The notes: generated by a model from the letters alone, not told the origin. Shown: positions 4,699-34,721, counted from the first letter of the stretch. The stretch: 53,980 nucleotides of DNA from Bacillota bacterium (GCA_012518675.1 JAAYRR010000094.1:1-53980); one strand, 5' to 3'. A program made the numbers and translations.

Positions 4699-4700
4699 CC

Positions 4701-8142: not shown

Positions 8143-8197
8143 CCTCCAACCAAGAATAACTGATCATGCCTATCTGCAAAAAACATTTTTTTCCCGA

Positions 8198-9961: not shown

Positions 9962-10111
9962 GAAAGCTCCACCTCCTGTAGACAGTTATTTTTCAAAAGA
10001 TGGGCCCTTAAAAACCCAGAAGAAAAAATTTTAAAGTATCCCCCCTTTAAACTGGAAGCATCATCGTCTGAATGCAATCCACATAATTTCAATAATAACA
10101 GTATAAGGACA

Positions 10112-11260
10112 CTATTCGATAAGTTTTCCAGCAATTTCAAGTATCTCCATAACCTGCATTTCTTCTTCAAAGCCCTTCGCCTTAACAGCATCGTCCAAAG
10201 TTAAAACACAGAAGGGACAGGCAACAGCCAGGATGGTAGCACCCAGCTCCTTGGCATCGCGGACCCTTTCTTCCGCCAGGCGTTCCTTGTGGGATTCAGT
10301 TTCCGCCCACATCTTGCCCCCGCCCCCCTCGCAGCAAAGGCTGCGCTCCCTATTGCGTGAAAATTCAACTTGTTCTGCGCCGGGAATCTGGTTTAGTATA
10401 TAGCGCGGTTCATCATAAACATCGTTCCGCTTGCCCAAATAACAGGGATCATGAAAAACAATCTTCTGGGCAAATTCTTTTGTGAACACCAGTTTTTCAT
10501 CTTCCAGAATTTCCTTCAACAGATGTGTGTAGTGTATTACCTCTGCCTGCAAATCAGGATACTGATTTTTAAGGGCATCATAACAGTGGGGGGAAAGAGT
10601 TACAATCCTGGTGGTATCAAAGCTGTTTAACAGCTCTGTGCCATCTTCGACCATCATTTCAAAAAGGCCGTCCTCCCCAACTTCCCCCATGTTGTATATT
10701 TCACTGGCACAACAGACTTCGTCATCCCCTACAAAACCATAATCAATACCGGCTTTATTAAGTACTTTTACAAAGTTTTGGGCGATAACCTGAACCTTGG
10801 GATCATAGGCGATAGTACAACAAACAAAGATGAGGTTTTCCACTTTTTCCCCGGGTACAGCAATTTTAACATCCAATCCCTGCATCCAGTCACTGCGTGT
10901 CGCCTTGGGTTTGCTCCAGGGGTTACCCTCCCGAAAAGCGCTTTCCAAAGCATCCCTGACTGTCGGCTGAATTACACCGCTTTCTACAAGGATATTTCTA
11001 AGGCCAATCAGCACCTCCATAGGCTTAAGGCCTTTGGGACACCTGATGGCACAGGTTTCACAAGTGGTACAATCCCACACTTCCGGTAATTTTGCCAATT
11101 CATCAAGCATACTTTCGTCAAGGGCATCGTAAACAATGCGCCTTACGTTTAAATCAGTCCGTGTATTAACCGGGCAGCCTCCGGTACATCTTCCGCACTG
11201 GATGCACCCCAACAAATCATGTTTTTGAATAAAACTCTGAACTTCTGTATTCATCTTCAT
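10112..11260 (-). CDS. soluble HdrD/GlpC-like Fe-S oxidoreductase (2x[4Fe-4S] ferredoxin domain plus two CCG domains)
   Basis: CIQCGRCTGGCP and CTTCETCAIRCP, then CCG-type Cys motifs (VCCASE, DPCYLGK, CCEGGGG, ACPFC). I see no hydrophobic helices. Confidence 0.85.
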   Translation of the reverse strand: MKMNTEVQSFIQKHDLLGCIQCGRCTGGCPVNTRTDLNVRRIVYDALDESMLDELAKLPEVWDCTTCETCAIRCPKGLKPMEVLIGLRNILVESGVIQPTVRDALESAFREGNPWSKPKATRSDWMQGLDVKIAVPGEKVENLIFVCCTIAYDPKVQVIAQNFVKVLNKAGIDYGFVGDDEVCCASEIYNMGEVGEDGLFEMMVEDGTELLNSFDTTRIVTLSPHCYDALKNQYPDLQAEVIHYTHLLKEILEDEKLVFTKEFAQKIVFHDPCYLGKRNDVYDEPRYILNQIPGAEQVEFSRNRERSLCCEGGGGKMWAETESHKERLAEERVRDAKELGATILAVACPFCVLTLDDAVKAKGFEEEMQVMEILEIAGKLIE

Positions 11261-12351: not shown

Positions 12352-14241
12352 TCAGACCAACTTCCGGGCCACTCTTTCATCCCCCAGGCGGCGGGTATAT
12401 TTGCAGCTGTCAAAATGTTCAAGCAGCGCCTGTGCATATTTGCGGGAGGTCTGCAGCAGATCACGGTATTGAGCAAGGTTTATCCGGGGGTTTTTTTGTA
12501 AATAGTCCTTTAAAACCTGCAGGCAGTGTTCATAGACCTTGCTTTGCAGGTAAATTTCTGCAGCAATTTTTACCAAAACCCCCCTGTAAGCAAGGTAATC
12601 CAGCAGATCTACAGCCTCCCCCTTTCCAAGGCCCAGGTCAATGCATAAATCCTTGGGCGCCGGAGGCGTGAGACCGCTTTTCTTAAAGAGGTTTTCGATT
12701 GCTGCCAGTTTTTTTTCCTGGCCCGGAGTAGGCCGGGGAATAAAGCCTTTTTTGGTAATTACATCCCCGCTGCTAATAAGCAAACCTTTACTTTTCAAAT
12801 GTTCCAAAAAGGCATCATAGGCGGGGCCGGCAATTTTGCGGGGCAGGTATCTGCCAATCCTTGATTTTGGTGCACCCGGTAACAAAGGTTTTTCTGTATG
12901 GAAATGTTCCAGTTCTTTCATTATTTCCTTTTCCCATTTTCCCCTGTCTGCAGCAGTAACGTATAGGTCACCGAACAAAGCCACCTTGCCCTCCGCGGCA
13001 GCCCTTTGTAACAGCGCTTCCAGCCGCTGGGGGGTCATTTTCGTCAGATGCGATAAGTCAGACAAAGGGGCAGCCTGGACAGCTGTTATTTTTTGTAGCA
13101 CGAAGGGAAGCGGGTCACCTTTTTCAAGTTCCTGTAACCTTTCCAATACATCCCGGTGAAACCGTTTGTGGCGCAAAGGGCGCTCATCAAGCACCTTCCC
13201 CCCGCCAATAGTGACAACCGGTGAATAGGAACGAATAATAAAGCGGTCACCGCGTTGGGCAATCAGGGGTTTATCAAGCCGGCATTGTACAAAACACTCT
13301 TTTCCCGGCAGCAGTTCTGTGTTCTCCAGCAAATACAAGGAGGCCACAGCCCGGGCCGTTCCCAAATAAAAATGAACCGGAACCATATTGGTTAGCGGAC
13401 GGGGGGCTGTGGAAAGCAATTTTAACTTGGCATCCAGGCGCCGGGTAGTATGAAAATAACCGGGGGCAGCCACTACCGACCCTCTTAGGACCCCTTCCTT
13501 TTCCAAGCCGGCCAGGTTCAAGGCTGTCCTCTGCCCTGCAAAGGCCTCCGCAACCCCCTCCCCATGGACCTGTATCCCCCGGACCCTGAAATTTCGGCCG
13601 GGAGGGGTTACTTCAACCGTTTCACCCGTTTTAACCGTACCGTTTAAAATTGTGCCTGTAACAACGGTTCCGAATCCGGAAAGGGAAAAAACCCGGTCCA
13701 CAGGCAGGCGCAAAGGAGCGTCTCTGTCACCGGCAGTTATTTTTTCTGCCATTAGGGCCACTGTCTCCCTTAAGTTTTCAATACCCTGTTTAGTAATTGC
13801 GGAAACAAGATGCAGGGGGCTGTTCGCCAAAAAGGTACCGGTAAAGGCCTCCTTTATTTCCTCTATAATCAGTTCCAACCATTCCTTGTCCACCAGATCA
13901 ATTTTGGTTACAACAATTATGCCTTTTTTTATTTGCAGCAATTCCAGAATGTCAAGATGTTCTTTTGTCTGGGGCATAACACCTTCTGTGGCGTCTACCA
14001 CCATCAAAACAAGGTCGATTCCCCCCACCCCGGCCAGCATGTTATGAATAAACCTTTCATGCCCGGGGACATCAACTATCCCTGCCAGACGGCCGCTGGG
14101 AAGCTGAAAGGGGGCAAACCCAAGATCGATGGAAATACCCCGTTTTTTTTCTTCTTTTAACCGATCTGTATCTGTGCCCGTCAGGGCCTTAATCAATTCT
14201 GTTTTACCGTGATCCACATGCCCGGCTGTCCCAATAATCAT
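12352..14241 (-). CDS. selB: selenocysteine-specific translation elongation factor
   Basis: 629 aa. [23 protein letters not shown]-domain, followed by a long winged-helix C-terminal extension. Overlaps selA by 4 nt. Confidence 0.95.
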
Positions 14242-15704
14242 GGCTCAAAACCCCCCCCGGTTTCTTCCTCTGCAGACCGCGGAAAAGTCTGCACAATCGT
14301 TTCTATTAACAGTTCATCAGCTTCTTCCAAAAGAGAACGCAAATCCAGCAAAATTTTATTTTTCAGCACCCGGGATATAACAGGATACCTGGTTCCCCGC
14401 AGTTTTTTAACCAGTTCGTTCACGCTCGTCCCTGTGCGTTCCAGGGTTACCTGGTAGCTGGGCAGGAAAGCAAGAGGCAATGAACCGCCCCCCACCCGGG
14501 CCTTTTCCCGGGAAATGCCGATAGTCCAGCCCGGGCCCAGCCTGGCAGCTAACTTTGCAGCCAAAACTTCTGCCCGTGCCTTCAAAACTGTGCTGGGAAC
14601 GGTGAGCATGCGTAAGACGGGGATTTCCCTGAAAGCTTTTTCTTCATCCAAGTAAAGGCGCAAAGTGCTTTCCAAAGCAGCCAGGGTCATTTTACCCACT
14701 CGCAAGGCCCTGGTTAGCTGATTACTTTTTATACTTTCCAGGTATTTTTTCTTGCCGATGATTAGACCGCTTTGAGGCCCCCCCAGCAGCTTATCCCCAC
14801 TAAAGGTTACAACATCAACCCCAGCCTTTATAGAATCCTGAACCCGGGGTTCATAGGGCAGGCCGTAGCGGGTGAGATCGACCAGGACCCCACTGCCCAA
14901 GTCTTCCATAACCGGCAAACAGCACTTCCGGCCCAGCCCTGCAAGCGAAGCAGCGTCTACTGAGGATGTAAAACCCATAATTTTAAAGTTGCTGCTGTGC
15001 ACCTTCAACAGCAGGGCTGTTTTTTCGTTAATGGCCCCTTCATAATCCCGCAGGTAGCTTTTATTAGTGGTCCCTACCTCGGCAAGCAGTGCCCCGCTGG
15101 CAGTCATCACCTCCGGCAGACGAAAAGAGCCCCCAATCTCTACCAGTTCACCGCGGGAAACAACAACCTCCCGCCCTGCCGCAAGGGTATTTAAAGCCAG
15201 GAAAACCGCCCCCGCGTTGTTGTTGACCACCAACGCCGCTTCTGCCCCCGTAATCCGGCAAATAAGTTCTTCCACATGTTCATAACGATAGGCCCGGCGG
15301 CCGGTTTGCAGTGAAAGTTCCAGATTGCAAAAAGAGCTGCTTATCCTCTGCAGCATCGCTGCTGCAACTGCAGCCAATGGGGCCCGTCCCAAATTTGTAT
15401 GCAAGAGCACACCGGTAGCATTAAAAACAGGCTGAAAATTGGCCCTGGATCTTTCATCAACCTTCTGCCTGGCTTCTAAAGCAAGGGCAGCAGGGGAAAG
15501 GGTCATACCTTCCAGTTGCCGACCCGTTAAAGCCCTTTGAATAACAGCCCGTTTTTCAGCCACTACTTCCTGCACAGCTTCCACAATAAGGTCACGTGGT
15601 ATTTCCCTTTCCACCCCCTTCAACTCTGTTTCCTGTAAAATCTTATCTACAGCCGGCAAAAGACGTAAATACTTTTGCCGGAGCTGTTTATAATCCAGGG
15701 ACAA
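14238..15704 (-). CDS. selA: L-seryl-tRNA(Sec) selenium transferase
   Basis: 488 aa. PLP-lysine motif FSGDKLLGGPQSG and NNNAGAVFLAL are typical of SelA. Confidence 0.95.
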   Translation of the reverse strand: MSLDYKQLRQKYLRLLPAVDKILQETELKGVEREIPRDLIVEAVQEVVAEKRAVIQRALTGRQLEGMTLSPAALALEARQKVDERSRANFQPVFNATGVLLHTNLGRAPLAAVAAAMLQRISSSFCNLELSLQTGRRAYRYEHVEELICRITGAEAALVVNNNAGAVFLALNTLAAGREVVVSRGELVEIGGSFRLPEVMTASGALLAEVGTTNKSYLRDYEGAINEKTALLLKVHSSNFKIMGFTSSVDAASLAGLGRKCCLPVMEDLGSGVLVDLTRYGLPYEPRVQDSIKAGVDVVTFSGDKLLGGPQSGLIIGKKKYLESIKSNQLTRALRVGKMTLAALESTLRLYLDEEKAFREIPVLRMLTVPSTVLKARAEVLAAKLAARLGPGWTIGISREKARVGGGSLPLAFLPSYQVTLERTGTSVNELVKKLRGTRYPVISRVLKNKILLDLRSLLEEADELLIETIVQTFPRSAEEETGGGFEP

Positions 15705-17942: not shown

Positions 17943-18038
17943 TGGCGGGAGTAGATGGGAATCGAACCCACCATGGGCCTCGTCAGCCCATCATTGGATT
18001 TGAAGTCCAAGGCGCCCACCAGGTGCACAACTACCCCC
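17943..18038 (-). tRNA. selC: tRNA-Sec (anticodon UCA)
   Basis: Minus strand: GGGGGTAG TT GTGCAC CTGGT GGGCGC C TTGGA CTTCAAA TCCAA TG ATGGGC TGACGAG GCCCAT G GTGGG TTCGATT CCCAT CTACTCCC G CCA. It has an 8-bp acceptor stem, a 6-bp D stem, a UCA anticodon, a long 6-bp variable arm, a 5-bp T stem and an encoded CCA. This is the bacterial 8/5 tRNA-Sec architecture. Confidence 0.9.
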
Positions 18039-18293: not shown

Positions 18294-19499
18294 TCAGGGT
18301 TTCAGGGTTTTCCAAACATGCTGGTAAACTTTTTTTAGGGGTACGTTGTGCTTGCCGGCAATTTGGGAACAATCATCATATTCGGGGGCGATGTTGTGGT
18401 AATCTGGGGGTTGGCCGGCAACCACTACCCGGACCGGTCCCCAAGGGGTTTCTACAACAGACTGTTCCCGGGGCAACATGATTTTTTCGGCAGAATGCCG
18501 TCTAAAACCCAGCGTCGTCGTTTCCTGAAGTAATATCCGGCCTAACTGGTAGGATTTTTGGGGACTTGCCAAAATGGTAATTTTAACAGCAGGCCTGTTT
18601 TTTTTCATTTGGATCGGGGTGAAATAAACATCTAAGGCCCCGGCGGATAACAGTTTCTTCAAAACATAATCGTAGATTTCCGGGTTAAGATCATCTACGT
18701 TGGCCTCAATAATTTCCAGCGGTTCGGTAAGCAGTTTTCCCGGCAATAAATTTTCACCAGCCGGAAACTGCCCCGCTGCTGTAAGTTTACCCACGAAAGC
18801 CCGGACAACGTTGGGACGATCAAAGTCTTTAGTGCCTGCACCATAGCCAATTTTTTCAATGATCATCGGGGGCAGAGGTATAAACCCTGAACTCAGGGTG
18901 CCCAGCAGGGCCGCCCCGGTAGGGGTTACCGTTTCTTCTTCCAAGGAAATACCATAACAGGGTATGCCCCGTTCTCTAATTATTTCTGCCGCAGCCGGGG
19001 CGGGCAGGGGTATCCAACCATGGCTGGCCTTGATCCAGCCTTTTCCTAAGGGCAGGGGTGACGAAAAAATTTGTTCAACCCCGAGCATTTCCAATGCAAT
19101 GACACTGCCAACAATATCAACAATAGCGTCCACGGCCCCTACCTCGTGAAAGTGGACCTTGTCGGCAGAAATACCATGGATTTTGGCCTCTGCGCGCGCC
19201 AGGGTTTGGAAAACAGCAATACTTTTTTCTTTTACAGCCGTTGAAAGAGCAGCCCCTTTGATAATAGCTGTAATTTCAGGAAGGTTACGTGCAGGCTGCT
19301 TTTCAGTGACATGAATTTTGATCTGGAGGGCGCTCAGGCTTTTTTTATTTGTACGTTCGCTTGCAAAAACATAGCCCTTTACAGGCAAAAGTTGCAGCTG
19401 TTTTTTAAATTCCTTCATTTCCAGCCCACAATCATGCAGTGCAGCTAAAATCATATCACCTGCTGCACCGGCAGTACATTCTAAATACAGTCCCCGCAT
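18294..19499 (-). CDS. larC: nickel-pincer cofactor biosynthesis protein LarC (nickel insertase, DUF111)
   Basis: 401 aa. N-terminus MRGLYLECTAGAAGDMILAAL, and central EANVDDLNPE...FTPIQMKKNRP typical of LarC. Confidence 0.9.
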   Translation of the reverse strand: MRGLYLECTAGAAGDMILAALHDCGLEMKEFKKQLQLLPVKGYVFASERTNKKSLSALQIKIHVTEKQPARNLPEITAIIKGAALSTAVKEKSIAVFQTLARAEAKIHGISADKVHFHEVGAVDAIVDIVGSVIALEMLGVEQIFSSPLPLGKGWIKASHGWIPLPAPAAAEIIRERGIPCYGISLEEETVTPTGAALLGTLSSGFIPLPPMIIEKIGYGAGTKDFDRPNVVRAFVGKLTAAGQFPAGENLLPGKLLTEPLEIIEANVDDLNPEIYDYVLKKLLSAGALDVYFTPIQMKKNRPAVKITILASPQKSYQLGRILLQETTTLGFRRHSAEKIMLPREQSVVETPWGPVRVVVAGQPPDYHNIAPEYDDCSQIAGKHNVPLKKVYQHVWKTLKP

Positions 19500-19533
19500 T
19501 AACTTTAACCCCTTTCCTATAACAGCATAAGGT

Positions 19534-20373
19534 TTATTTTTGCCCTTCTATTACCTGTTTATTTGATTTATCTGCTAGAATTTCATCCATACTACCTGAA
19601 CGAAATCCCTTTAAATCGAGTGTTACATAAACATAACCTATTTCATTTAATTTATTTGAAAGCTTCGGGAGCAAAGCCAAAATTTTTTCAAATTCAGCGG
19701 GGGCAACCTCCAGGCGGGCCAGGTTGCCATGGTGCCGCACCCTAAAAACTTTAAAACCTTGAAATTGAAGATATTCCTCAGCTCGCCTAACCATAGCCAG
19801 CTTTTCTTTGGTAATCTGTTCCCCATAAGGAAAACGGGTTAGCAGGCAGGCTTGTGAAGGTTTATTCCAGGTGGGCAGCTTCATTTTTTGGGATAGTTTT
19901 CGGATATCATCTTTTGTCAGCCCTGCTTTTAGTAAGGGGCTTTTGACCCCCAATTCCCGTGCTGCAAGCGTTCCTGGCCGGTGTTCACCCCGATCATCAT
20001 AATTTGTTCCATCAAGGACACAGGGCAGCCTGTATTCCTTTGCTATCGCAAAAAGCCTTTCAAATAAGTTTTTCTTACAAAAATAACAGCGTTCTGGGGA
20101 GTTGGCGGCAAACTGCCAGTTGGTAAGATTGTTTGTAAAAATAACCTTGTGTTGCAGGGCCAACTGCTGAGCCACCTGTAAGGCGTCCTTTTTTTCCCTT
20201 GGTGCGTGTATTTCATCTAATGCGGTCACAGCCAGTAAACGATCCTTCATTTCCTCCCGGGCGACCTTAGCCAAAAAAGAGCTGTCCACCCCGCCGGAAA
20301 AGGCCAGAACAGCGCCCCCATAGCCCCTTAACAGATCTCTGAGTTTTGAAATTTTATCCTTGATATCTTTCAT
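19534..20373 (-). CDS. larE: ATP-dependent sulfur transferase LarE (PP-loop ATPase)
   Basis: 279 aa. PP-loop AFSGGVDSSFLA, CYFC pair and SQACLLTRFP motif. Confidence 0.9.
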   Translation of the reverse strand: MKDIKDKISKLRDLLRGYGGAVLAFSGGVDSSFLAKVAREEMKDRLLAVTALDEIHAPREKKDALQVAQQLALQHKVIFTNNLTNWQFAANSPERCYFCKKNLFERLFAIAKEYRLPCVLDGTNYDDRGEHRPGTLAARELGVKSPLLKAGLTKDDIRKLSQKMKLPTWNKPSQACLLTRFPYGEQITKEKLAMVRRAEEYLQFQGFKVFRVRHHGNLARLEVAPAEFEKILALLPKLSNKLNEIGYVYVTLDLKGFRSGSMDEILADKSNKQVIEGQK

Positions 20374-20436
20374 TTTATTATTCCCTGCTATCCTTGAATT
20401 TCATTAAAATATCCTCATACAAAACATCTGTCCCTT

Positions 20437-21276
20437 TTAAACGTTACTCAGGGCTTGGTGTGGTTCTACCCTTCTTTCTGTGACACTGGGTGCAGCAAAG
20501 ACATTTCCCCTTATTTTGCTTGCCCGCAAACTGCTGCGGATGATTTTATCTGCCAAAGTCGCTGCACCAAAACCATTGTCGATGTTGACCACACCTATAC
20601 CGCTGGCACAGCTGTTTAACATAGTCAATAAAGCTGAAAGGCCATTAAAATTGGCGCCGTAGCCGACACTGGTCGGCACTGCAACAATGGGAACGTCAAC
20701 CAGTCCCCCCACCACACTGGGCAAGGCCCCCTCCATGCCTGCCACAGCAATGATCACCGCAGCACTGCGCAGTTTATTTACATGGGCTAAAAGCCTGTGG
20801 ATGCCGGCCACCCCGGCGTCATAAATTTTTTCCACCCTATAACCTATAGCCTCTGCTGTTACAGCAGCTTCTTCTGCTACCGGTATATCTGCTGTGCCTG
20901 CCGTGAGTATAACAATTTTACATGGAAATTTTTTTGTTTTTACTGCTGAAAGGCTGACTATCCGGGCCGTTTCATGGTACACCGCCTGGGGACAGTACAG
21001 ATGTACAGCTTCATAAACCTCACGGGAAGCACGGGTACCGAGTACATTTTTGTTGCATTTGGCCAGGCTTCTAAAAATTTCAACAACCTGTTCTGTCGTC
21101 TTCCCCTGGCAAAATATTACCTCGGGAAAACCCTGCCTCAGGGCCCGGTGATGATCAATTTTGGCAAAGTGGAGATCTTCGTAGGGTAGTTTTTGCAGTT
21201 CAGTTAAAATTTCTTCCAAGTCCCTTTTACCGCCCTTATAATCTGTTAACATTTTTTCTAAATGATCAAAATCCAT
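20437..21276 (-). CDS. larB: nicotinic acid adenine dinucleotide carboxylase/hydrolase LarB (PurE-like)
   Basis: 279 aa. AIR-carboxylase-like core ILTAGTADIPVAEEA...AVAGMEGALPSVVGGL. Confidence 0.9.
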   Translation of the reverse strand: MDFDHLEKMLTDYKGGKRDLEEILTELQKLPYEDLHFAKIDHHRALRQGFPEVIFCQGKTTEQVVEIFRSLAKCNKNVLGTRASREVYEAVHLYCPQAVYHETARIVSLSAVKTKKFPCKIVILTAGTADIPVAEEAAVTAEAIGYRVEKIYDAGVAGIHRLLAHVNKLRSAAVIIAVAGMEGALPSVVGGLVDVPIVAVPTSVGYGANFNGLSALLTMLNSCASGIGVVNIDNGFGAATLADKIIRSSLRASKIRGNVFAAPSVTERRVEPHQALSNV

Positions 21277-21338
21277 AATTTCACTGCTGCCTCCTTACCT
21301 GCCTTAAGGTTGTGTCCCGGGCATATACAATACATTTT

Positions 21339-21896
21339 TCATCTTGGGGAGAATTCTCTTACAGGTTCAAAATTGGAGACCAGCTCCAACTGAAGGTATA
21401 TGTTGATATCCTCTTTTGAAACATTCCAAAGTTGCGCTTCCAAAACAGTGCGCAGGGTGCTGGTTGAAAAGTGGTAATCTATCGCCTCCAGCCTTTTTTT
21501 AAGATCTATCAGAAAATCGTGTTCAATCTTGATGGAAAGCAAATGTCCTGCATTGGAAATATATTTAACATTAAAGGGAATCTTTCCTTCATTAACACCA
21601 TTCCTTGTCAGATAAAGCATCTTTTCCCTGAAGGTAATATCAAAATGAACGTGGGCGCTGTCCATGATATGATAACCCCAGATGCCGAGCTCTTCTGCCA
21701 GAAAAAGGGCGACAAGTTCTAGTTTATCCGGGGGCAAATCAATTAGCAAAAGGTATCCGGGCCGGTTTTTTTTAGTAGCAGTCTGCAAAAGCTGGACATT
21801 TTTGGCCCCAAGTTCGAAAAGCTTATCCAGGGCAAAACCAACCGTTTCACCGGAGACATGATCAACCTGCGCTAAAACAAGCTTTCCTTTTTTCAT
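21339..21896 (-). CDS. stand-alone LarC C-terminal-domain (LarC2-like) paralog
   Basis: 185 aa. AQVDHVSGETVGFALDKLFELGAKNVQLLQTATKKNRPGYLL aligns by eye with [43 protein letters not shown] of the larC in this window. It lacks the N-terminal half. Confidence 0.6.
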   Translation of the reverse strand: MKKGKLVLAQVDHVSGETVGFALDKLFELGAKNVQLLQTATKKNRPGYLLLIDLPPDKLELVALFLAEELGIWGYHIMDSAHVHFDITFREKMLYLTRNGVNEGKIPFNVKYISNAGHLLSIKIEHDFLIDLKKRLEAIDYHFSTSTLRTVLEAQLWNVSKEDINIYLQLELVSNFEPVREFSPR

Positions 21897-21961
21897 TTTT
21901 TTAACACCTTATAATTATTATTAAATTAATAAGCATCTCACGGACGCTGTTAAATTTATCT

Positions 21962-22390
21962 TCACAAAAATTGCCCTGCATCCTGGCAGGAATCAACAGT
22001 ACAGCTTTCACTCCAAAAGAATCTTCCTTCTGCATTAAGATATGCAGGAAAAGCAACCGCCTGTTCTTGAAGCTTTTCTTTAAAAGCACCAAAAACAGCT
22101 ATGATTGCTTTGCGGGCAGATTCTTCAGATCCCAGCATTTTCCTTAACATAGCCCTCAGGGAGGGGGTTTCATTTTTCCTGGTGGAATCTGTATAGGGAA
22201 ACGTTTTTTCCCAAAGCAGATTCAGGCCCTGGGGGAACAGTAAGGTTATCTGTTCCCCCTCTGTGGGCCTAAGGGCTGCCTTTAAACACTGGAAAACAGC
22301 CTGCACAGCCAGGGCAGCGTCGGAATAGGTTACATACCCGCCAATCCCTCTTACATAATTAATAAATTCGCGTTCGCTTACTGGCCGCAT
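21962..22390 (-). CDS. DUF2267-like protein
   Basis: 142 aa. Two-repeat helical pattern (EFINYVR..GG....DAALAVQAVFQCLKAAL ... ARKAIIAVFGAFKEKL) reminiscent of DUF2267. Motif-level call only. Confidence 0.45.
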   Translation of the reverse strand: MRPVSEREFINYVRGIGGYVTYSDAALAVQAVFQCLKAALRPTEGEQITLLFPQGLNLLWEKTFPYTDSTRKNETPSLRAMLRKMLGSEESARKAIIAVFGAFKEKLQEQAVAFPAYLNAEGRFFWSESCTVDSCQDAGQFL

Positions 22391-22454
22391 AAAAACATCT
22401 GCCTTCTTAACTAAGTTTTAAATAGACCATTTGTTTGAAACAATTTTTTTAGTG

Positions 22455-22799
22455 CTATTGACTGTATATTTCGGGACGCTTTTTTAAAAAACGTTCAATG
22501 GCCTGTTCTACATATTCGGTTGTTACAATGCCTCCCATAATACAACAGTCTGCACACTTACCACAACCGCTGCACAAAAACGGATCCAAAATCCAGGGGA
22601 CGAAAACACCCTTAGCGTTTGTTTCCGTCATTTTAAGGCATTCCCTTGGGCAGTGGTTTACGCAATCACCACAGCCCTCACAGCTGCCCGGCAGAACCCA
22701 AGGCATTTTTTTGGGGAGTTTTCGCGGTTTTTTATCATTTAGATTACGTTGCAGTTCCTCATCCATGGGTTCCTTACCCCCTTCTTTAATGCAATCCAC
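22455..22799 (-). CDS. 2x[4Fe-4S] ferredoxin-like protein
   Basis: CEGCGDCVNHCP and CSGCGKCADCC motifs. Starts 11 nt after the stop of the 588-aa gene. Confidence 0.8.
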   Translation of the reverse strand: MDCIKEGGKEPMDEELQRNLNDKKPRKLPKKMPWVLPGSCEGCGDCVNHCPRECLKMTETNAKGVFVPWILDPFLCSGCGKCADCCIMGGIVTTEYVEQAIERFLKKRPEIYSQ

Positions 22800-22810
22800 T
22801 GCATAACTGT

Positions 22811-24577
22811 CTATAGTTCTTTGGAAATCAACGCTGCTAAATTAACAGCTTCTTTAATTTTGGGAACCGGGATACTCATACTGATAGTAGCCCCTTCTGT
22901 AGCCTGATTAACAGCTTCTTCAGGGTCCATGCCCCTGGCTGCTGCCACCGCGGCAGGAACAACAATATCCATAGCTACAGCTCCGGCATTGAGCAGATCA
23001 ACAGCCCCGGCAGCAAAACACTGGATAATATCCAACTTTTCCAAGTCTGATTCCAAAAGGGCATCGGGAATAGCCTCGGCTAAGATATTTTTAAAGTTGT
23101 AAACCTTGCCGTCCACCTTAACCTCACAGTCAACATAGCCGTCGAATGCAAAATATTTTTTGGCCAGGCGGTGTGTGCGGCGCCCGGCACCGGGCCTAAC
23201 GTTGTAATACTTTACATATTCAATGTTTCGGTTCAGGGCTTTGCTAAACAGGCGGGCGACACCTTTGCCCAAATCCTCCAGGCGTAGGGCCTCCAGTTTT
23301 TCTGTTATCGCGGTTAGGTTTTTACCTTTTTCAAGTTCAGCATATACAAATTCAGCACGTTTGACTAAAGACTTTGCCATGCGTGGTTCAGTGGCTTTAA
23401 TAATGATGCGGGTTACAGGGCCCCGTTCAATAAAATTGGCATGGCGGGCCAGGATATTGGTGGCAACGTTGGCATGTTCCGGCTGGAAATAACTGTCCAT
23501 GGTCTTTTTCAGAGCTTCTACAATTTCATCCTCATCTAGCCCTTTACCCAAGAGATAGAGCGTAAGCGCCGGCGAAGTACACCAGTGTGTCAAGGGAAGA
23601 AGCAGGGGACCGCCGCTACGCCCCACCCCCAGTGCCGGGCCTTCTTGAATTAAGGCACAGGTTTCATTAAACATTATCATACCTACAACAGTAGGGGTAC
23701 CGCAATCTTTCAGGATCATAGCCAAGTCACCGATGACGCGAGCCGTTTCCAGCGCTTCCCCTGTACCCCTGATATGAATTTTTTCCGGCATTTTGGCTGC
23801 CTCAACTGCAGCAAGACCACAGACGTAGGGTGTGCGGGTCTGCAAGAAAGGCCCGTATTCTTCACCAATATAAGCGTCCGGGTGTAAAATCTCCAGGGCT
23901 GCAGCACAGGAAAAAAGGCTGGCCATCCAACGGCATGGTTTCATTCCCACAGAGTTATAGGCACGCAGCATGGCGTCAACACCAATTTTTACAAGTTTTT
24001 TGGCCAGTTCCGGGAAAAGTATATCTTCCCCAACACGGGTATGACCCGTAACCGGACTTCCCGCTACACCTAAGGGAACAATTTCACCCTTCCAGGGGGC
24101 CAGGGTTTCTTTTTGCATAGCTTCGTACATAGCCTGAACGGCAGCAAAACCGGATATTTTATTATTCAGTTTTTCCGTGGGGATACTGGAAATGCTTCCA
24201 GAAGGCGCCCCGGCTGCCAAGCGTGTCACGGCCCCCAGTTTACGGTTTGGGGCGGGGATACCGGCTGTAACATTACAACCAGCCCAGTAAAGCAGGGTAG
24301 CTGCAATCAGCGAGGCGTTGGAGGCATCTGCCCCGTTGTCCATCAGCACCTTTACAGCCTTGGCAGCAATGTCATCTATTTCTGTACGCCGTTCATTGCT
24401 GACACCAACCCTGACCTTTTTCCCTTTTTGTAATTCATTGGCAATCACGTTCGCTGCTGCCCACACGGCAAAGTTAAAAGAACCAAAACCACCTAGAACA
24501 GCATCAAATTTTTCTGTGGTTAAATAATCCGGCTGAACTGTAACAGCACGATACGCTGCCATAATCTCTTTTTGCAT
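22811..24577 (-). CDS. uncharacterised 588-aa soluble Ala/Gly-rich protein (family not recognised)
   Basis: Long uninterrupted ORF with a GGAGGGAGAACC Shine-Dalgarno region, tightly coupled to the ferredoxin gene. I recognise no transmembrane segments, Fe-S motifs or nucleotide-binding motifs. Confidence 0.85.
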   Translation of the reverse strand: MQKEIMAAYRAVTVQPDYLTTEKFDAVLGGFGSFNFAVWAAANVIANELQKGKKVRVGVSNERRTEIDDIAAKAVKVLMDNGADASNASLIAATLLYWAGCNVTAGIPAPNRKLGAVTRLAAGAPSGSISSIPTEKLNNKISGFAAVQAMYEAMQKETLAPWKGEIVPLGVAGSPVTGHTRVGEDILFPELAKKLVKIGVDAMLRAYNSVGMKPCRWMASLFSCAAALEILHPDAYIGEEYGPFLQTRTPYVCGLAAVEAAKMPEKIHIRGTGEALETARVIGDLAMILKDCGTPTVVGMIMFNETCALIQEGPALGVGRSGGPLLLPLTHWCTSPALTLYLLGKGLDEDEIVEALKKTMDSYFQPEHANVATNILARHANFIERGPVTRIIIKATEPRMAKSLVKRAEFVYAELEKGKNLTAITEKLEALRLEDLGKGVARLFSKALNRNIEYVKYYNVRPGAGRRTHRLAKKYFAFDGYVDCEVKVDGKVYNFKNILAEAIPDALLESDLEKLDIIQCFAAGAVDLLNAGAVAMDIVVPAAVAAARGMDPEEAVNQATEGATISMSIPVPKIKEAVNLAALISKEL

Positions 24578-24679
24578 AATGGTTCTCCCTCCTGAATAGA
24601 GTTCCCAATTTAAATTTTTCTGAATAAATTTTGAGGGGCCCAGAAAAAGATTCGTGCCCCTTTTTATACTGTTTTAATC

Positions 24680-25096
24680 TTAAGCCCGGGGGGGTTTCAG
24701 ATCTTTCCAGCGTTCCTCCTCAAAACCTTTCATTTTTTCATAACCCAAAACGTCAAGGCGTAGGCCGGCTTCTGCACCAGGCCTGGTACAGTAAATTTCA
24801 CTTACCTTTACAACTAAATTGTTGTTTTGTAACGCCCCCTTACCTTTAAACTGGTAAGGGGCCCTTACAGATCCCAGCTGACCGGGGCCTAAGGCCACCA
24901 AGGGGGGTTCCGCAAAAAGATCCTTTACCTGCCCGATCTGAGCCCTTGAAAGAGGAATTTTAACCGTATCGCTTTCTACTTCACAGCCGTAGGAAACTAG
25001 AACCACAGGCAACCGGTCCCTTGTAGCAACGGCTGCATGGACGCCAAATTTTTCAATCCAATTTTTCATACGTGGCGTCAAAGGCACAGTCATCAT
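24680..25096 (-). CDS. PNPOx/FMN-binding split-barrel-like protein
   Basis: 138 aa with beta-rich composition, adjacent to a clearer PNPOx-family paralog. Motif-level call. Confidence 0.45.
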   Translation of the reverse strand: MMTVPLTPRMKNWIEKFGVHAAVATRDRLPVVLVSYGCEVESDTVKIPLSRAQIGQVKDLFAEPPLVALGPGQLGSVRAPYQFKGKGALQNNNLVVKVSEIYCTRPGAEAGLRLDVLGYEKMKGFEEERWKDLKPPRA

Positions 25097-25118
25097 GAAA
25101 ACCTCCTTTTTTAAACCG

Positions 25119-25631
25119 TTATGATGAAAGAACTTTACCGGCTTCCTGCGGTTCCCAGCTATAAATTTCCTCTACCTTCAGGGCAATGATTCCCCTTTGG
25201 GCAAGCTTGGGGGGAGCAATATCCGGGGGAACTTCATCAGGCGGTTCTTTTTCGGCCCAGTTGCCCCATTCTGCAAGAACCTCTTTGGCCCTAATCCCGT
25301 GCCACCTGTAATTTGGGGAAGCAGCGTGGGAAATAATTGTACAGGGACCGCGAAAGACCCAAGTTTTACCTTTAGAGGGGTGGGCTACAGAGATGCAACC
25401 CTGTTCATTTTCGTTAAGGTTAACCTTAGTTTTTTGGGCAAACATCTCGGCAATTAAAATATACTCATCTTTATAGTGGGTGATAAAACGTTCTGCAACA
25501 ATATTGGGTTTACCGTCCTTGCTGCAGGTGCTTAAAAAGACAACTGCACCACCTTTGCCCACTACCTTTAAAACCTGCTTCATTTCTGGTGTCAATTTGG
25601 CCATCAGGCTATAGTACCTCCTTTCTGACAA
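25119..25631 (-). CDS. pyridoxamine 5'-phosphate oxidase family (FMN-binding split barrel) protein
   Basis: 170 aa. VVFLSTCSKDGKPNIV...ILIAEMF..KT..NL..N is typical of the family. The start may be the ATG at 25604. Confidence 0.6.
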   Translation of the reverse strand: MSERRYYSLMAKLTPEMKQVLKVVGKGGAVVFLSTCSKDGKPNIVAERFITHYKDEYILIAEMFAQKTKVNLNENEQGCISVAHPSKGKTWVFRGPCTIISHAASPNYRWHGIRAKEVLAEWGNWAEKEPPDEVPPDIAPPKLAQRGIIALKVEEIYSWEPQEAGKVLSS

Positions 25632-25874
25632 GGTATATACAGAATTTAAATGACTTTGGGCATTTTAATTAATTTACTTGTTTTTATGTTTTACCCAAAC
25701 TGATCATTTAAATTCGTTATTATAAGATTTCATTATTGCAGAAAGGAAGGCCTTTTCATATTTTTTGTTTAATATAGGACAATCTTGTGGTGTTTATTTT
25801 TTTGGCGGGTTGTTCCGGGATATACGGGCCATAGCCCTTTAAAAAATACAACTTATAAAAATAATACAATGGAA

Positions 25875-25897
25875 AGCCCTCTCAAGAGGAGAGGGCT
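25875..25897. terminator. GC hairpin overlapping the response-regulator stop codon
   Basis: AGCCCTCTC aagag GAGAGGGCT. There is a strong T-run on the plus side (TTTTTGCATGCCTGTTTTTTTTT) and only a weak one on the minus side. Confidence 0.45.
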
Positions 25898-27003
25898 TTT
25901 TGCATGCCTGTTTTTTTTTGGCGGTATTCACCGGGCGTTAGCCCGGTAAATTTCTTAAAAACGCGGGAAAAATAGCATGCATCTGAAAAACCTATTTTTT
26001 GGGCAATATAACGCTGTGTCAAGGACCCTTTGGCCAGCATCACTTTTGCTTTTTTAATCCTGATCCTATTTACATAGCTGGAGAAATTTTCCCCCTTTTC
26101 CTGTTTAAAAAGGGTGCTGAAATATGCAGGACTTAAATAAATGTGTTGCGCTACGTCTGCCAAGGTGAGCGGTTCCTTGATATTTTCATTGATATACTGT
26201 TCCACTTTCCTGATAATATGGCTGTTACGGGATTCCTCTTCTTGGGGAACGCTGGAGGCTAGTACATAAACTGTTTTTTTCAAAGTTTGTAGCAGGTCTT
26301 CTTCATTTTTTGCCTGGAATATCTTACACAAGGCTTGATGCTTGCAATCTGTAACTAAAAGTTTTTCCGCACCGGCCTCCAACGCAGCGCGTAAAAGCAC
26401 CAAGAGCAGTTCTGTAGCCAACGCTGAAAGTGCCGGTAAAGCCTCCCCTTGCTGGCTAAACCCCTGCAGAATGGCCTTCAGTTCATAACAAATTGCTAAA
26501 GCCTCCCCCTGTTGCATCAATGCCTGAAGTTTATCTTCTTGGCAGGGGGTGTAGCCTGAAATATCAGTCCGGGAAGGAAATTTTTGGTGTGCATAGCTGG
26601 GATCACCGCTTTTTCCCCCGTTATTTTTCTGTTTAAATTCTTTTAAACAACGGCAGACAACCTTTACTATCCCTTCAGGTTGCACAGGTTTCACCAGGTA
26701 ATCAAACGCACCATAACGGAGGGCCTCCTGTGCATATTCGAAGTAATTATATGCTGAAAGAATAATAATTTTACTGTCTGGTAAGGTTTGGCGTATAAAT
26801 TTCATTGCTTCCAGGCCACTACAGCCCGGCATTTTAATATCAAGGATAACTACCTGGGGTGAATAACGCTTAGCAAGCTGTATAGCCTCCCGCCCGTTGG
26901 CAGCCTCGATAATATTATGCACTGGGACATGGGAATTTTTTAAAATTATATTTAAACCTTGGCGAACAATCGGTTCATCATCGGCAATTAGAATATTGAT
27001 CAT
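25882..27003 (-). CDS. two-component response regulator, REC plus AraC-type HTH
   Basis: N-terminal ILIADDEP...LDIKMPG receiver. C-terminal AraC helix-turn-helix (YLSPAYFSTLFK...FSDACYFSRVFKKFTGLTPGEYR). Confidence 0.9.
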   Translation of the reverse strand: MINILIADDEPIVRQGLNIILKNSHVPVHNIIEAANGREAIQLAKRYSPQVVILDIKMPGCSGLEAMKFIRQTLPDSKIIILSAYNYFEYAQEALRYGAFDYLVKPVQPEGIVKVVCRCLKEFKQKNNGGKSGDPSYAHQKFPSRTDISGYTPCQEDKLQALMQQGEALAICYELKAILQGFSQQGEALPALSALATELLLVLLRAALEAGAEKLLVTDCKHQALCKIFQAKNEEDLLQTLKKTVYVLASSVPQEEESRNSHIIRKVEQYINENIKEPLTLADVAQHIYLSPAYFSTLFKQEKGENFSSYVNRIRIKKAKVMLAKGSLTQRYIAQKIGFSDACYFSRVFKKFTGLTPGEYRQKKTGMQKALSS

Positions 27004-28232
27004 CTATTATACACCTGCAAATTCGTTTCTTGGTGCCCCCTGCTATCATACACCGGTGTTTTCAGCCCTGAGGGCAGAACAAGTAAAACCTTCGTTCCTT
27101 TTCCAAGTGTACTGCTGATTTGTAAACCATATGCTGGCCCATATAGTAATTGACATCGTTTGTGAACATTATAAAGGCCCATACTTTCGTTGTTTCCCTC
27201 TGTAGATACAATATACTTTTGCACTTCTGCAAGCCTTAGGTTATCCATACCTACACCGTTGTCCTCTATGCTGAAACAAACAAGATCTTCTTCCAGCCAT
27301 CCCATTATTTTTAGAAGTCCTGCTTCTTCTTTAGGTTCAATCCCATGGACGACAGCATTTTCTACCAAAGGCTGCAATATCAGCAATGGAACCTCTACCT
27401 GCAAAAGAGCCGGATCAACTTTTTTTCTAATCTGCAGCCTTTCCCCAAACCGGGTGCGCTGGATTAACAGATAGTCATCTACTGCTGCCAGTTCTTCCCC
27501 CAAGGTCACCATGCTGCGCCCTTTTTGCAAATTATTTTTTAGTAAACCAGAAAGGGCCCTGATAAGCTTCTGGGTTTCGTTTGCCTCCTCCATTAAAGAT
27601 AGCATATAAATAATATTTAATGCATTGAGCAAAAAATGGGGATTTATTTGCAACTGTAAAGCTTTAAGTTCCGCCACCTTCAGTGCTTTTTCCGCCTTGA
27701 GTTTTTCTGCTTTTAACCTGCTGTTATAGATCTGCATCATAAAGTCAACAATTGTTTCCAACAGGCGGCCGACCAACCGAACCTTACCTGTGCCTAGAAC
27801 TGGTATCTCTGCATAGGCCCGTTCAAGCTCCGGGGGCGCAAGTTTCAATTTGGCAGCCAACTTTAAAATATCATATTTTTGCTGCTGGGTTGGACAGTTT
27901 TCCAATATTTCCCCGCAAATTAGGGCACCAAGGGGTTCACCGTCAAAAAATATGGGCACCGTCACCTGGGTTAACCCTGCATGGCAGGTATAGTTACTGG
28001 CCTTTATGCAAGGATCCATTGTCTTTAAAATGTTTTGTGCAGAAGCGTGACACATTCTTGCCCCTTCCGGGCTTTTGCGTATCAAGCTGCAAAAGTTACA
28101 AGGTTGCTTACGGTGGCTGGTAAGAATTCTTTCTCCGGAGTGATCTATAAATTTCAGCCAAAGGTTGTCCATTTCACTGATAATATTCAAAACAGGCTGT
28201 AACCCTGTAATATTAAAAAGACTTTTTACCAT
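27000..28232 (-). CDS. sensor histidine kinase with N-terminal PocR sensory domain (LytS/YehU-type kinase core)
   Basis: PocR-like CNFCSLIR...MCHASAQN...YTCHAGLTQVTVPIFFDGEPLGALICGE, then NPHFLLNALN and a GHKL ATPase (IEDNGVGM). Overlaps the regulator gene by 4 nt. Confidence 0.85.
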   Translation of the reverse strand: MVKSLFNITGLQPVLNIISEMDNLWLKFIDHSGERILTSHRKQPCNFCSLIRKSPEGARMCHASAQNILKTMDPCIKASNYTCHAGLTQVTVPIFFDGEPLGALICGEILENCPTQQQKYDILKLAAKLKLAPPELERAYAEIPVLGTGKVRLVGRLLETIVDFMMQIYNSRLKAEKLKAEKALKVAELKALQLQINPHFLLNALNIIYMLSLMEEANETQKLIRALSGLLKNNLQKGRSMVTLGEELAAVDDYLLIQRTRFGERLQIRKKVDPALLQVEVPLLILQPLVENAVVHGIEPKEEAGLLKIMGWLEEDLVCFSIEDNGVGMDNLRLAEVQKYIVSTEGNNESMGLYNVHKRCQLLYGPAYGLQISSTLGKGTKVLLVLPSGLKTPVYDSRGHQETNLQVYNR

Positions 28233-33449: not shown

Positions 33450-34721
33450 ATGACTGAACATACTGTTAAGCGAACTTTTAATTCTCAACTGGGGACCGGC
33501 ATCGCCTCTTTTGTTCTTTGTTTTATTTTAGCCTGTATCCTTTGGCCTATTTGGTCCCTGATTATGAAGTCTATTTTCAGTTCCTTGGCTGCAGCCGGTT
33601 TGGCAGCAGTTGAACCGGGAACGGCAGGTGAACTGATGGGGGTCATGGTGGAAGGCAGTTTTTTCTGGATGGTAATCAACCCTTGGATTTGGATGACCAT
33701 TATTATGGGGAACTATGGTAAAACACACTATACCACCAAACAACCGCATGCCGGGCTCTGGTATTCTGTAGTAGCCCTGATTGCGGGCCTGCTAGCTTTC
33801 TTTGTCATTATCGGGTTTATCGGCATCTGGTGGAAGCCGTTTAACCTGGCCCTGTTGTTAACACCTAAAACAGCAGCAGAGGTGGAGTTGGCCATTATGG
33901 GTTGGGGAGCCGCCAACTTTCTTGCTTTACCGGTCATCATGACCCAAATTCCTTTCGCGGCACTGTTCCATAAGTGGCCTTTTGCCGGCACATCCAAACA
34001 GCCGACCGAAGGCTGGGGTGTTTTCTTCTTCAGCACACTTGCGGTCGTTATTGTCTGGATAGCCACAGTTATACCCCACTTTATACCCTTTTCGGTTAAC
34101 GGCCAGTCTGTTGTCAACCCACCAATGGGTTCCTGGGCTACCTGGGTTGCTTTCTGTCAGGCGTTCATTTTCGTTTTCCTGATTCCCGCCGAAGGCGGGG
34201 AAGGCTATCCGATGAAGCTTTTTACCCAAAAGCAGCCCTATATGGGAATCGTTGGCTTTGTGATAGCCCTTGCTGCCGGGTTGATTGTGCCCCCCATTGT
34301 GCGGGGAATAATTGCTCCCTTGGATCTGCTGCCCGGAGCCCCGGTTGATTTGGCAGTGGCCTCCATCATTTTAACAGGGGTTATCAGCATGTTATTCTGG
34401 CACCACCTGTTTGATGACTACCCCAGTGCCCAGCTTGTGCCCAACACTGCAGCCCGCGTCTTAATCCGTTTGGCCATTTGGGTTGTCCTGGGCGCTGTGC
34501 TAGGCGTTATTTGGCTTAAGATTTTTACTATCGTGCCCTTTGGGGCCAACAACTTAGGTATGGGTTACCCCACGATGGGTGTCTTGGCCGGTCAGTTCGC
34601 CTTTTTAATGACACTGCTGTTCTATAACACCTTCTTTGATAAATGGCCCTTGGTCTATAAGGAACGGGTCAGGGTCGGTTACAAAGAAACGGTTGCCAAT
34701 TTAAAAGAAGATCTGCCGTAA
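33450..34721 (+). CDS. polytopic integral membrane protein, family not recognised
   Basis: 423 aa with about 10-12 hydrophobic segments rich in W/F/G. Strong AAGGAGGG Shine-Dalgarno and a clean terminator. Confidence 0.8.
   Translation: MTEHTVKRTFNSQLGTGIASFVLCFILACILWPIWSLIMKSIFSSLAAAGLAAVEPGTAGELMGVMVEGSFFWMVINPWIWMTIIMGNYGKTHYTTKQPHAGLWYSVVALIAGLLAFFVIIGFIGIWWKPFNLALLLTPKTAAEVELAIMGWGAANFLALPVIMTQIPFAALFHKWPFAGTSKQPTEGWGVFFFSTLAVVIVWIATVIPHFIPFSVNGQSVVNPPMGSWATWVAFCQAFIFVFLIPAEGGEGYPMKLFTQKQPYMGIVGFVIALAAGLIVPPIVRGIIAPLDLLPGAPVDLAVASIILTGVISMLFWHHLFDDYPSAQLVPNTAARVLIRLAIWVVLGAVLGVIWLKIFTIVPFGANNLGMGYPTMGVLAGQFAFLMTLLFYNTFFDKWPLVYKERVRVGYKETVANLKEDLP

Follow-up and report, generated by a model that had tools for sequence, protein, structure and literature searches.

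An orphan 588-residue protein encoded with larB, larE and larC and paired with a LarC2-fold paralogue: a candidate nickel-pincer-dependent enzyme family

Which protein is served by a set of nickel-pincer nucleotide (NPN) cofactor genes, larB, larE and larC, that stands in an operon without a gene for LarA? Since 2014 many prokaryotes have reportedly been known to make the nickel-pincer cofactor and yet to lack LarA. The question is raised here by a single contig of 53,980 nucleotides (nt) from a Bacillota bacterium (JAAYRR010000094.1:1-53980, assembly GCA_012518675.1), the whole of which is called the window and in which the operon region occupies positions 18294-28232. The operon also encodes a protein of 588 residues, called X588, and a small stand-alone paralogue having the fold of the LarC2 domain, called C2-like. 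X588 is probably the catalytic protein of an undescribed enzyme family that depends on NPN or on a close derivative of it.

The operon consists of nine co-directional genes on the minus strand, running from 25604 to 18294, with two regulator open reading frames (ORFs) upstream. In the 5' to 3' direction the genes encode a PNPOx-like protein, its 138-residue paralogue P138, X588, a 2x[4Fe-4S] ferredoxin, a DUF2267 protein, C2-like, LarB, LarE and LarC, separated by 22, 102, 11, 64, 65, 62, 63 and 34 nt, respectively (Table 1). The ORF coordinates, the common strand and the short gaps of 11-102 nt agree with the initial annotation of this region. Its gene identities also hold, LarB, LarE and LarC scoring above the curated cutoffs and DUF2267 being marginal. 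LarE carries the PP-loop SGGVDS and the cysteines C96xxC99...C176; such a CXXC-C motif marks the [4Fe-4S]-dependent, non-sacrificial LarE subtype (PMC9283937). As had been annotated, no LarA-like ORF is present: a LarA domain occurs in none of the ORFs of at least 240 residues in the 54-kb window.

The simplest objection is that the larBEC genes serve a LarA encoded elsewhere in the genome, the six upstream genes being an unrelated unit. The scan for LarA was confined to the window, so that a distant LarA is possible, and the C2-like gene is separated from larB by a gap of 62 nt. However, neither the signal scan nor folding of the operon shows a terminator between the upstream six genes and larBEC, and the same juxtaposition is found in dozens of independent loci from bacterial and archaeal phyla. 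A chance arrangement is extremely improbable.

X588 matches no Pfam or NCBIfam family at E <= 0.01, and LarA was not among the PDB matches at E <= 10 in either phmmer or profile searches. Searches of the PDB with the single sequence and with family profiles returned nothing meaningful. They gave only a match to a designed helical repeat, which is compositional, and a weak one between the small beta-domain and 4h7l, an uncharacterised protein. The AlphaFold2 model, calculated with 40 homologues (pLDDT 85.4, pTM 0.87), is mostly helical and has one small sheet. Upon comparison of this model with 350,542 PDB chains using Foldseek, the best E-value was 0.15 and all TM-scores were below 0.2, the top rows being membrane transporters. 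The protein is predicted to be soluble (GRAVY 0.10), with one borderline Ala-rich stretch. An exhaustive profile search of 1.84 billion representative proteins yielded 153 hits, mostly fragments, with about 17 full-length clusters, and none of the 153 joins an annotated family. The earlier view that the 588-residue protein belongs to no characterised family is thus upheld in Pfam, NCBIfam and the PDB, as well as by comparison of the model with the LarA fold.

Within its own clade, X588 is 53-98% identical to its homologues across phyla and its length is fixed at about 589 residues. In paralogues that are only 31-39% identical, R119, E229, E312 and D479 are invariant, and N87, N111, R112, K113, K136, N139, H179, E184, D185, H232, D234, H268, K290, D291, H331, R407, R466 and R467 are nearly so. 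The near-invariant residues of the superfamily thus include four histidines (H179, H232, H268 and H331) and three lysines (K113, K136 and K290), and no cysteine is conserved across the paralogue alignment. This set of residues would be compatible with the His/Lys binding of the cofactor seen in LarA and NphT (PMC13524815).

Some archaeal homologues of X588 (P0328, P0355, P0394 and others) carry the label "methylthioribose-1-phosphate isomerase" in JGI and in one NCBI record. This label is unsupported. No match between the X family and the eIF-2B/MtnA family was found with Pfam, with NCBIfam, or by PDB sequence, profile or fold searches, so the label looks like a propagated misannotation.

The C2-like protein matches PF01969 in its C-terminal part only, with a score of 45.9 bits (cutoff 22.1), and stays below the cutoff of the NCBIfam LarC2 model NF052512 (45.0 bits versus 50). 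Its predicted structure (pLDDT 92) superimposes onto LarC2-type folds, the Foldseek matches being 3c19 (E 1e-9), 6bwq (E 6.1e-9) and 6bwo (E 8.1e-9). When aligned with 24 genuine LarC2 domains, C2-like retains the core residues D, E, GA, KKxR, E, G, K and E. However, three arginines that are invariant in LarC2 are replaced by a His, by a 100% conserved His and by a hydrophobic residue, and two aspartates are changed. The retained fold and the changed invariant residues mark C2-like as a paralogue that shares the LarC2 fold but has a remodelled pocket, and not as an equivalog. A word-indexed search, which reaches close relatives only, found 20 stand-alone PF01969 proteins of 171-196 residues. 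C2-like resembles both LarC2 and the archaeal stand-alone protein MK0293 (3c19) in fold and in the LarC2 core residues; the comparison with MK0293, which itself has no assigned function, is one of fold. It differs from the LarC2 domain of LarC in standing alone without LarC1, in its sub-cutoff score and in the altered Arg and Asp residues. In LarC, the LarC2 domain forms a hexameric core, binds CTP and CMPylates the cofactor precursor before nickel is inserted by LarC1 (PMC13510736).

The association of these proteins was followed in 45 loci from species-representative genomes, in 80 metagenome loci for which distant X paralogues served as seeds and in several further Pfam-annotated contigs. 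The census was made by scanning six-frame ORFs with hidden Markov models (HMMs), because an earlier census based on BLAST clusters had counted too few of the small C2-like genes, and comprises 64 non-redundant loci having both flanks. A LarC2-domain gene was counted as a neighbour when it lies within 1.5 kb of the X gene; for LarB, LarE and LarC1 the limit was 5 kb, in loci with long flanks.

A LarC2-domain gene neighbours X in 61 of the 64 loci, which represent six bacterial phyla and the archaea. The X sequences group into three large clades and several small ones. In clade 1, to which the window belongs, the partner is present in all 29 loci and is a stand-alone C2-like protein of 165-190 residues. 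Stand-alone C2-like partners are also found in clade 4 (20 of 20 loci) and in the single locus of clade 5, whereas clade 3 pairs X with a canonical full-length LarC (11 of 14 loci). In the three loci that lack a LarC2-domain neighbour, LarB adjoins X instead. The invariant unit is therefore X together with a LarC2-domain protein, and not larBEC. This was further supported by the sequence distances among X proteins, which correlate with those among their partner C2 domains (r = 0.85 overall and 0.77-0.83 within clades); none of 500 permutations gave a correlation as high. The co-occurrence of the 588-residue family with lar genes in other genomes is thereby established. The initial annotation had listed the small LarC-C-terminal paralogue in the operon, while its status as the invariant partner had escaped notice.

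LarB, LarE or LarC1 is encoded within 5 kb of X in 12 of 21 long-flank loci of clade 1, in all seven of clade 3 and in one of nine of clade 4. These numbers bear on the possibility that X588 is unrelated to the pincer cofactor, C2-like having been recruited as a subunit or regulator that binds some other nucleotide or metal, with larBEC nearby for secondary reasons. In many loci C2-like is indeed the only lar-related gene within 5 kb of X, and the sub-cutoff score and altered residues of C2-like, including the fully conserved His in place of Arg, would suit such a role. So would the fold of the LarC2 N-terminal region, a common ferredoxin-like type with similarity to PII-like proteins and to the nickel-binding domain of NikR as well. 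Nevertheless, the frequencies in clades 1 and 3 are hardly compatible with chance, the linkage to lar genes spans Bacillota, Chloroflexi, Nitrospirota and Halobacteriota, and the clade 3 partner is a true, full-length LarC. A function outside pincer chemistry is therefore unlikely.

The remaining neighbours of X vary with lineage. Type A loci, a part of clade 1 that includes the window, encode in order a PNPOx-like protein (in two copies in Nitrospirota), P138, X, an optional ferredoxin, an optional DUF2267 protein and C2-like, followed by LarB, LarE and either LarC or a LarC1-only protein. Such loci are found in Bacillota, Thermoleophilia, Chloroflexi, Actinobacteria and Nitrospirota of the Thermodesulfovibrio type. 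The PNPOx/P138/ferredoxin/DUF2267 set is kept with X despite reshuffling of order and strand, and P138 accompanies the PNPOx-like gene in all type A loci. In Nitrospirota, the catalytic subunit of a genuine nickel carbon monoxide dehydrogenase (Ni-CODH; TIGR01702, 501 and 616 bits, cutoff 478) is encoded near the X cluster. A 730-residue NuoE/NuoF-ferredoxin fusion comes after it in six type A loci (L016, L017, L018, L027, L032 and L038), and the subunit is also present in two type B loci (L023 and L028).

Two observations on individual type A loci may be added. In Nitrospirota and Chloroflexi, a conserved gene for a protein of about 233 residues, which has no Pfam or NCBIfam match and is absent from the window, lies between P138 and X (L017, 2705-3406; orthologues in L015-L020, L027, L030, L032, L038 and L047). 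Desulfofundulus thermobenzoicus DSM 14055 (L004/L007) has two lar sets. One, C2-like-LarB-LarC1-only, is joined to the X cluster, and the other, a canonical LarE-LarB-LarC set, lies a few kb away, past the PocR kinase/regulator pair.

Type B loci, which belong to clade 1, encode a 342-residue protein of the URO-D family, X and C2-like, in this order. They occur in Nitrospirota, Nitrospinota and Desulfobacterota, mostly without lar genes nearby. In the PDB the URO-D-family protein matches MtaA best (4ay7, E 3e-27); for true uroporphyrinogen decarboxylases the E-value is 1e-13. In the alignment with MtaA, its invariant H237-x-C239 falls on LHICGN and its invariant C319 on PGCGIAP, residues that we take to be the zinc site of that enzyme. 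The protein shares this His/Cys motif with the MtaA/CmuA methylcobamide:thiol methyltransferases, but remains below their curated cutoffs (168 bits versus 244), is found in non-methanogenic bacteria and is absent from the window. Several type B loci are flanked either by a second MtaA-like gene together with genes for a corrinoid protein, a RACo activase and a DUF1638 protein, or by a cbi cluster. In the Thermodesulfovibrionales genome STL-NIT1, one operon (L002/L049, 4674-13082) encodes a flavodoxin, LarE, LarB, a second X paralogue (about 39% identical), an MtaA-like protein, X, C2-like and a LarC1-only protein; a second locus of the same genome (L001) has MtaA-like, X and C2-like without lar genes.

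Clade 4 is found in Anaerolineae, in Bacillota and in archaeal contigs that also encode Kae1-Bud32 and AcnX. In one of its subgroups X is embedded among genes of tetrahydromethanopterin (H4MPT) and methanofuran metabolism, encoding an Mpt_N dehydrogenase, FTR, FwdA/FhcA-like and FwdB-like proteins, together with ATP-grasp, GHMP-kinase-like, CitG-like and pterin-binding proteins. Clade 3 occurs in Methanothrix, Methanoculleus, Methanofollis, Methanomicrobium, Methanocorpusculum, Methanolacinia, Archaeoglobus and others. Its genes are arranged either as LarB-LarC-LarE-X operons with no other conserved gene or, in methanogens, as a tight X-LarC pair. In one Methanothrix lineage (L054, 3605-12393; L056, L057, L060 and L061), X and a full-length LarC directly follow mcrB-mcrD-mcrG-mcrA, and a gene for the MCR glutamine C-methyltransferase (TIGR04014, 639 bits) lies on the opposite strand beyond the X-LarC pair. 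Adjacency to mcr was rejected as a general trait, since other Methanothrix (L137) and Methanofollis carry a stand-alone X-LarC pair. In Methanofollis ethanolicus (L138, 9001-19854), the X and LarC genes overlap by 4 nt. Genes for CbiA/GATase_3 and Oxidored_nitro proteins resembling cfbB and cfbD of F430 synthesis are situated 5-8 kb downstream on the other strand, which may be a coincidence.

The LarB-LarC-LarE-X operons and the X-LarC pairs mirror the arrangement of larA with larBCE, and X is for this reason read as the user of the cofactor. The size of the protein, its strong constraint and its wealth of conserved His, Lys and Arg residues lead to the same reading. A less likely, though serious, alternative is that X588 and C2-like form a machine for cofactor maturation, by metal insertion or by modification, for instance to a dinucleotide form, which serves variable clients encoded nearby. 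X would then either replace LarC1 or act after LarC. The only invariant neighbour of X is indeed a paralogue of a biosynthetic domain, the domain responsible for CMPylation of the precursor (PMC13510736), and in clades 1 and 4 it comes without LarC1. The lineage-variable neighbours, namely the split-barrel proteins, the MtaA-like protein, Ni-CODH, the H4MPT enzymes and mcr, could be the clients, and a dinucleotide pincer cofactor, NPAD, exists according to the summary given in PMC13524815. Several findings argue the other way. X stands beside a complete LarB-LarC-LarE set or a canonical LarC in loci that contain no other conserved candidate user. As the window, which has a full LarC besides C2-like, and clade 3 already possess a complete LarC, X is not needed there in place of LarC1. 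Moreover, C2-like lacks the three LarC2-invariant arginines, and the supposed clients are too heterogeneous for one unusual cofactor to be common to them.

The two non-LarA users of pincer cofactors reported so far sit on folds familiar from NAD(P) enzymes. NphT is an NPMN-dependent hydride transferase with the AKR fold, and it was found by mining the neighbourhoods of LarC for co-occurring Pfam domains in the absence of LarA (PMC13524815). The second is an NPAD-dependent ornithine cyclodeaminase, which uses the dinucleotide cofactor, as cited in PMC13524815. The statement in the initial annotation that LarA-family enzymes are the only well-characterised users of NPN is therefore outdated. X588 is distinct from LarA, NphT and the NPAD-dependent cyclodeaminase, matching none of these families by sequence. 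No description of the X family or of its stand-alone LarC2 partner was found in the literature searched; a paper on an anaerobic benzene-activation cluster (PMC13101534) and an MCR preprint, in which the apparent LarC was the software Larch, proved to have no bearing on it. The X family, having no Pfam model, is invisible to Pfam-based neighbourhood mining, and a search for non-LarA users by Pfam co-occurrence could not have detected it.

Like LarA, X588 is encoded in one operon with LarB, LarE and LarC, has conserved His and Lys residues that might coordinate nickel or tether the cofactor, and would by analogy be expected to transfer hydride at the pyridinium C4. Unlike LarA, with which it shares neither sequence nor fold similarity, it is about 160 residues longer, is mostly alpha-helical and has a LarC2-fold protein as obligatory partner, which LarA can do without. 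Its linkage to flavin-fold proteins and a ferredoxin, also unlike LarA, implies net redox chemistry and not racemisation. X588 resembles NphT as a presumed hydride-transfer catalyst. It differs in having no PF00248 AKR domain or TIM barrel, in belonging to no NAD(P)-dependent superfamily and in possessing a LarC2 paralogue of its own; cofactor binding has been demonstrated for NphT, which like LarA carries the cofactor as a covalent adduct of +450 Da, while X588 is known here from its genes and a predicted structure. The ornithine cyclodeaminase, as far as it is described in PMC13524815, is a precedent both for a pincer cofactor on a non-LarA scaffold and for a dinucleotide variant, which makes a nucleotide-activating role of C2-like conceivable. 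X588 has no Pfam match to the ornithine cyclodeaminase/mu-crystallin family.

If X588 is a pincer enzyme, the operon might function as follows. LarB, the [4Fe-4S]-type LarE and LarC, encoded at the operon end, would make the cofactor. C2-like would be the dedicated partner of X588, handing over the cofactor or activating its nucleotide; alternatively, it might form an oligomeric core that carries X588 as LarC2 does LarC1. The pincer cofactor on X588 would then exchange hydride with a small organic substrate, as acceptor or as donor. In type A loci, the presence of two split-barrel proteins and a ferredoxin suggests a relay from hydride to single electrons, in which the presumably flavin-binding PNPOx-like/P138 pair would deliver two electrons singly to the 2x[4Fe-4S] ferredoxin. 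Expression of the operon would be induced by a small-molecule signal through the PocR kinase and the AraC-type regulator. Taken together, the type A system could be a PocR-induced substrate:ferredoxin oxidoreductase with a pincer hydride site, a proposal that is possible but must be regarded as tentative.

For X588 itself, the gene content, the family assignments, the absence of a relative or solved fold and the conserved linkage are observed. Several points weigh against its assignment as a pincer-dependent enzyme. The binding of nickel or NPN by X588 is something that we infer, as are the hydride chemistry, the electron path and the inducer. LarB, LarE and LarC1 are all missing within 5 kb in about half of the clade 1 loci (type B) and in most clade 4 loci, and one genome carries X loci of both kinds, with and without lar genes. 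That a paralogue of a biosynthetic domain serves as the invariant partner fits a maturation role for X equally well. Judged from its residues, C2-like, having lost three invariant arginines, may bind neither CTP nor the pincer precursor. Finally, the absence of LarA applies to the 54-kb window, and the novelty of the X588 fold to a comparison with the PDB by Foldseek.

If the assignment is true, the X family represents a pincer enzyme on a fold with no solved relative, and its own LarC2-derived partner hints at a new route of cofactor delivery or activation. The family ranges from Desulfotomaculales and Nitrospirota to Methanothrix, Methanomicrobiales and Archaeoglobus, and its neighbours point to anaerobic one-carbon (C1) metabolism and low-potential redox reactions, fields in which nickel enzymes have a central part in the carbon cycle. 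The MtaA-like and corrinoid proteins, Ni-CODH, the H4MPT/methanofuran enzymes and mcrBDGA would all fit a more specific role, in which X is the missing nickel-pincer enzyme of methanogens and anaerobic C1 metabolisers, a new fold built on a LarC2-like core that adds hydride to a C1 unit or a methyl-thioether or removes it from one. It might, for example, oxidise to the formaldehyde level a methyl-thiol supplied by the MtaA-like partner, or interconvert formate and CO2. Methyl, methylene/formyl and CO2 chemistry would thereby be connected through a nickel-dependent step that has not been seen before. As evidence, the C1 theme of the X neighbourhoods is no more than suggestive, and this role for the family as a whole is quite improbable. 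Because several hosts are in culture (D. thermobenzoicus DSM 14055, Methanothrix and M. ethanolicus), dependence of X on the pincer cofactor is directly testable with published cofactor-loading protocols.

Table 1. Genes and transcription signals of the operon region, in the direction of transcription; aa, amino-acid residues.
Feature	Position	Strand	Basis and remarks
PocR-sensor histidine kinase, 410 aa	27000-28232	-	NCBIfam PocR domain, residues 23-168, E 5.9e-14; kinase/ATPase matches
REC + AraC-HTH response regulator, 373 aa	25882-27003	-	PF00072 E 1.4e-28; PF12833 E 5.8e-21; PF00165
Likely terminator of the two-component unit	25873-25899	-	Hairpin of 11 pairs (6 G-C) with T-rich tail, at the end of the regulator gene
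Promoter-like site upstream of the operon	25732-25759	-	ATGAAA, 16 nt, AATAAT; TG before the second hexamer; consensus match only
17-nt inverted repeat in the operon leader	arms 25637-25653 and 25704-25720	-	88% complementary, 50 nt apart; fold z -2.9 versus shuffles
PNPOx-like split-barrel protein, 161 aa	25119-25604	-	PF01243 42 bits (cutoff 28.1), E 1.4e-10
P138, 138 aa	24680-25096	-	Diverged PNPOx-like paralogue; hhalign E 1.4e-5, probability 80%
X588, 588 aa, candidate nickel-pincer-dependent enzyme	22811-24577	-	Orphan; LarC2-domain neighbour in 61/64 loci
2x[4Fe-4S] ferredoxin, 114 aa	22455-22799	-	Fer4_7 E 5.9e-8; Fer4_9; conserved in type A loci
DUF2267-like protein, 142 aa	21962-22390	-	PF10025 29.9 bits versus cutoff 29.8 (marginal); conserved in type A loci
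C2-like, 185 aa, stand-alone LarC2-fold paralogue	21339-21896	-	PF01969 positions 249-359 of 375, E 5.5e-12
LarB, 279 aa	20437-21276	-	NF033503 299.7 bits (cutoff 175)
LarE, 279 aa, [4Fe-4S]-type	19534-20373	-	TIGR00268 307 bits (cutoff 150)
LarC full-length, 401 aa, LarC1 + LarC2	18294-19499	-	TIGR00299 215.9 bits (cutoff 90); NF052512 142.7 bits (cutoff 50)
Intrinsic terminator of the nine-gene operon	~18236-18207	-	GGCGGU-8 nt-ACCGCC, then UUUUUAAUUU; direct reading and fold z -3.25

The split-barrel genes at the head of the operon had both been annotated as PNPOx-like. The first matches PF01243 directly, and its nearest solved relative is the heme-binding protein HupZ (E 0.004). The second, P138, has no Pfam match and is linked to the first by profile-profile comparison only, which identifies it as a diverged paralogue. 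FMN, F420 and heme are the candidate cofactors of the pair.

The boundaries of the operon were refined. The GGCGGU/ACCGCC hairpin at its end is not flagged by the consensus scanner, but is visible on direct reading, in agreement with the clear terminator that had been annotated there. The start of the first gene is shifted from the proposed TTG at 25631 to the ATG at 25604, which is preceded by the ribosome-binding site AAGGAGG. The inverted repeat of the leader lies between the promoter-like site and this ribosome-binding site. It was rejected as a conserved operator, as it is not kept upstream of orthologous operons. A hairpin at 24630-24665, which according to the initial annotation may split off the two PNPOx-like genes, was likewise rejected as an internal terminator. 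Its fold is not significant (z -0.12), and the gap between P138 and X is only 18-33 nt in relatives, so both PNPOx-like genes belong to the operon.

The two-component genes, which overlap each other by 4 nt, had been annotated as immediately upstream on the same strand and as part of the system. Their presence and strand are correct, and the pair travels with the cluster in Bacillota, accompanying it in five other loci at differing positions. However, a 250-nt spacer and the strong hairpin at 25899-25873 stand between these genes and the operon, so that the pair forms a separate unit and does not lie inside the operon. The kinase orthologues in L004 and L136 combine PF10114 (PocR), PF06580 (His_kinase) and PF02518 (HATPase_c). 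In Nitrospirota loci a GntR/UTRA regulator is found instead of the PocR/AraC pair.

The genes that flank the operon in the window are ordinary chromosomal ones, including selA, selB, tRNA-Sec, electron-transfer flavoprotein (ETF) genes, Hdr-like genes, topA, dprA, codY and panBC. Two ORFs, at 33450-34721 (plus strand, 423 residues) and 48900-50057 (minus strand, 385 residues), have no Pfam match at E <= 1e-4. An electron-transfer cluster at 2831-11260 on the minus strand, with no visible relation to the X588 operon, encodes an NAD-binding/DHODB-type Fe-S protein, two polyferredoxins, an HdrA-like flavoprotein, ETF alpha and beta and a CCG-domain HdrD/GlcF-like protein. Directly downstream of the lar operon terminator is a tRNA-Sec gene (anticodon TCA; 17943-18038, minus strand). 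It lies close to selA (14238-15704) and selB (12352-14241), and the three genes thus mark the selenocysteine-insertion locus of the organism.

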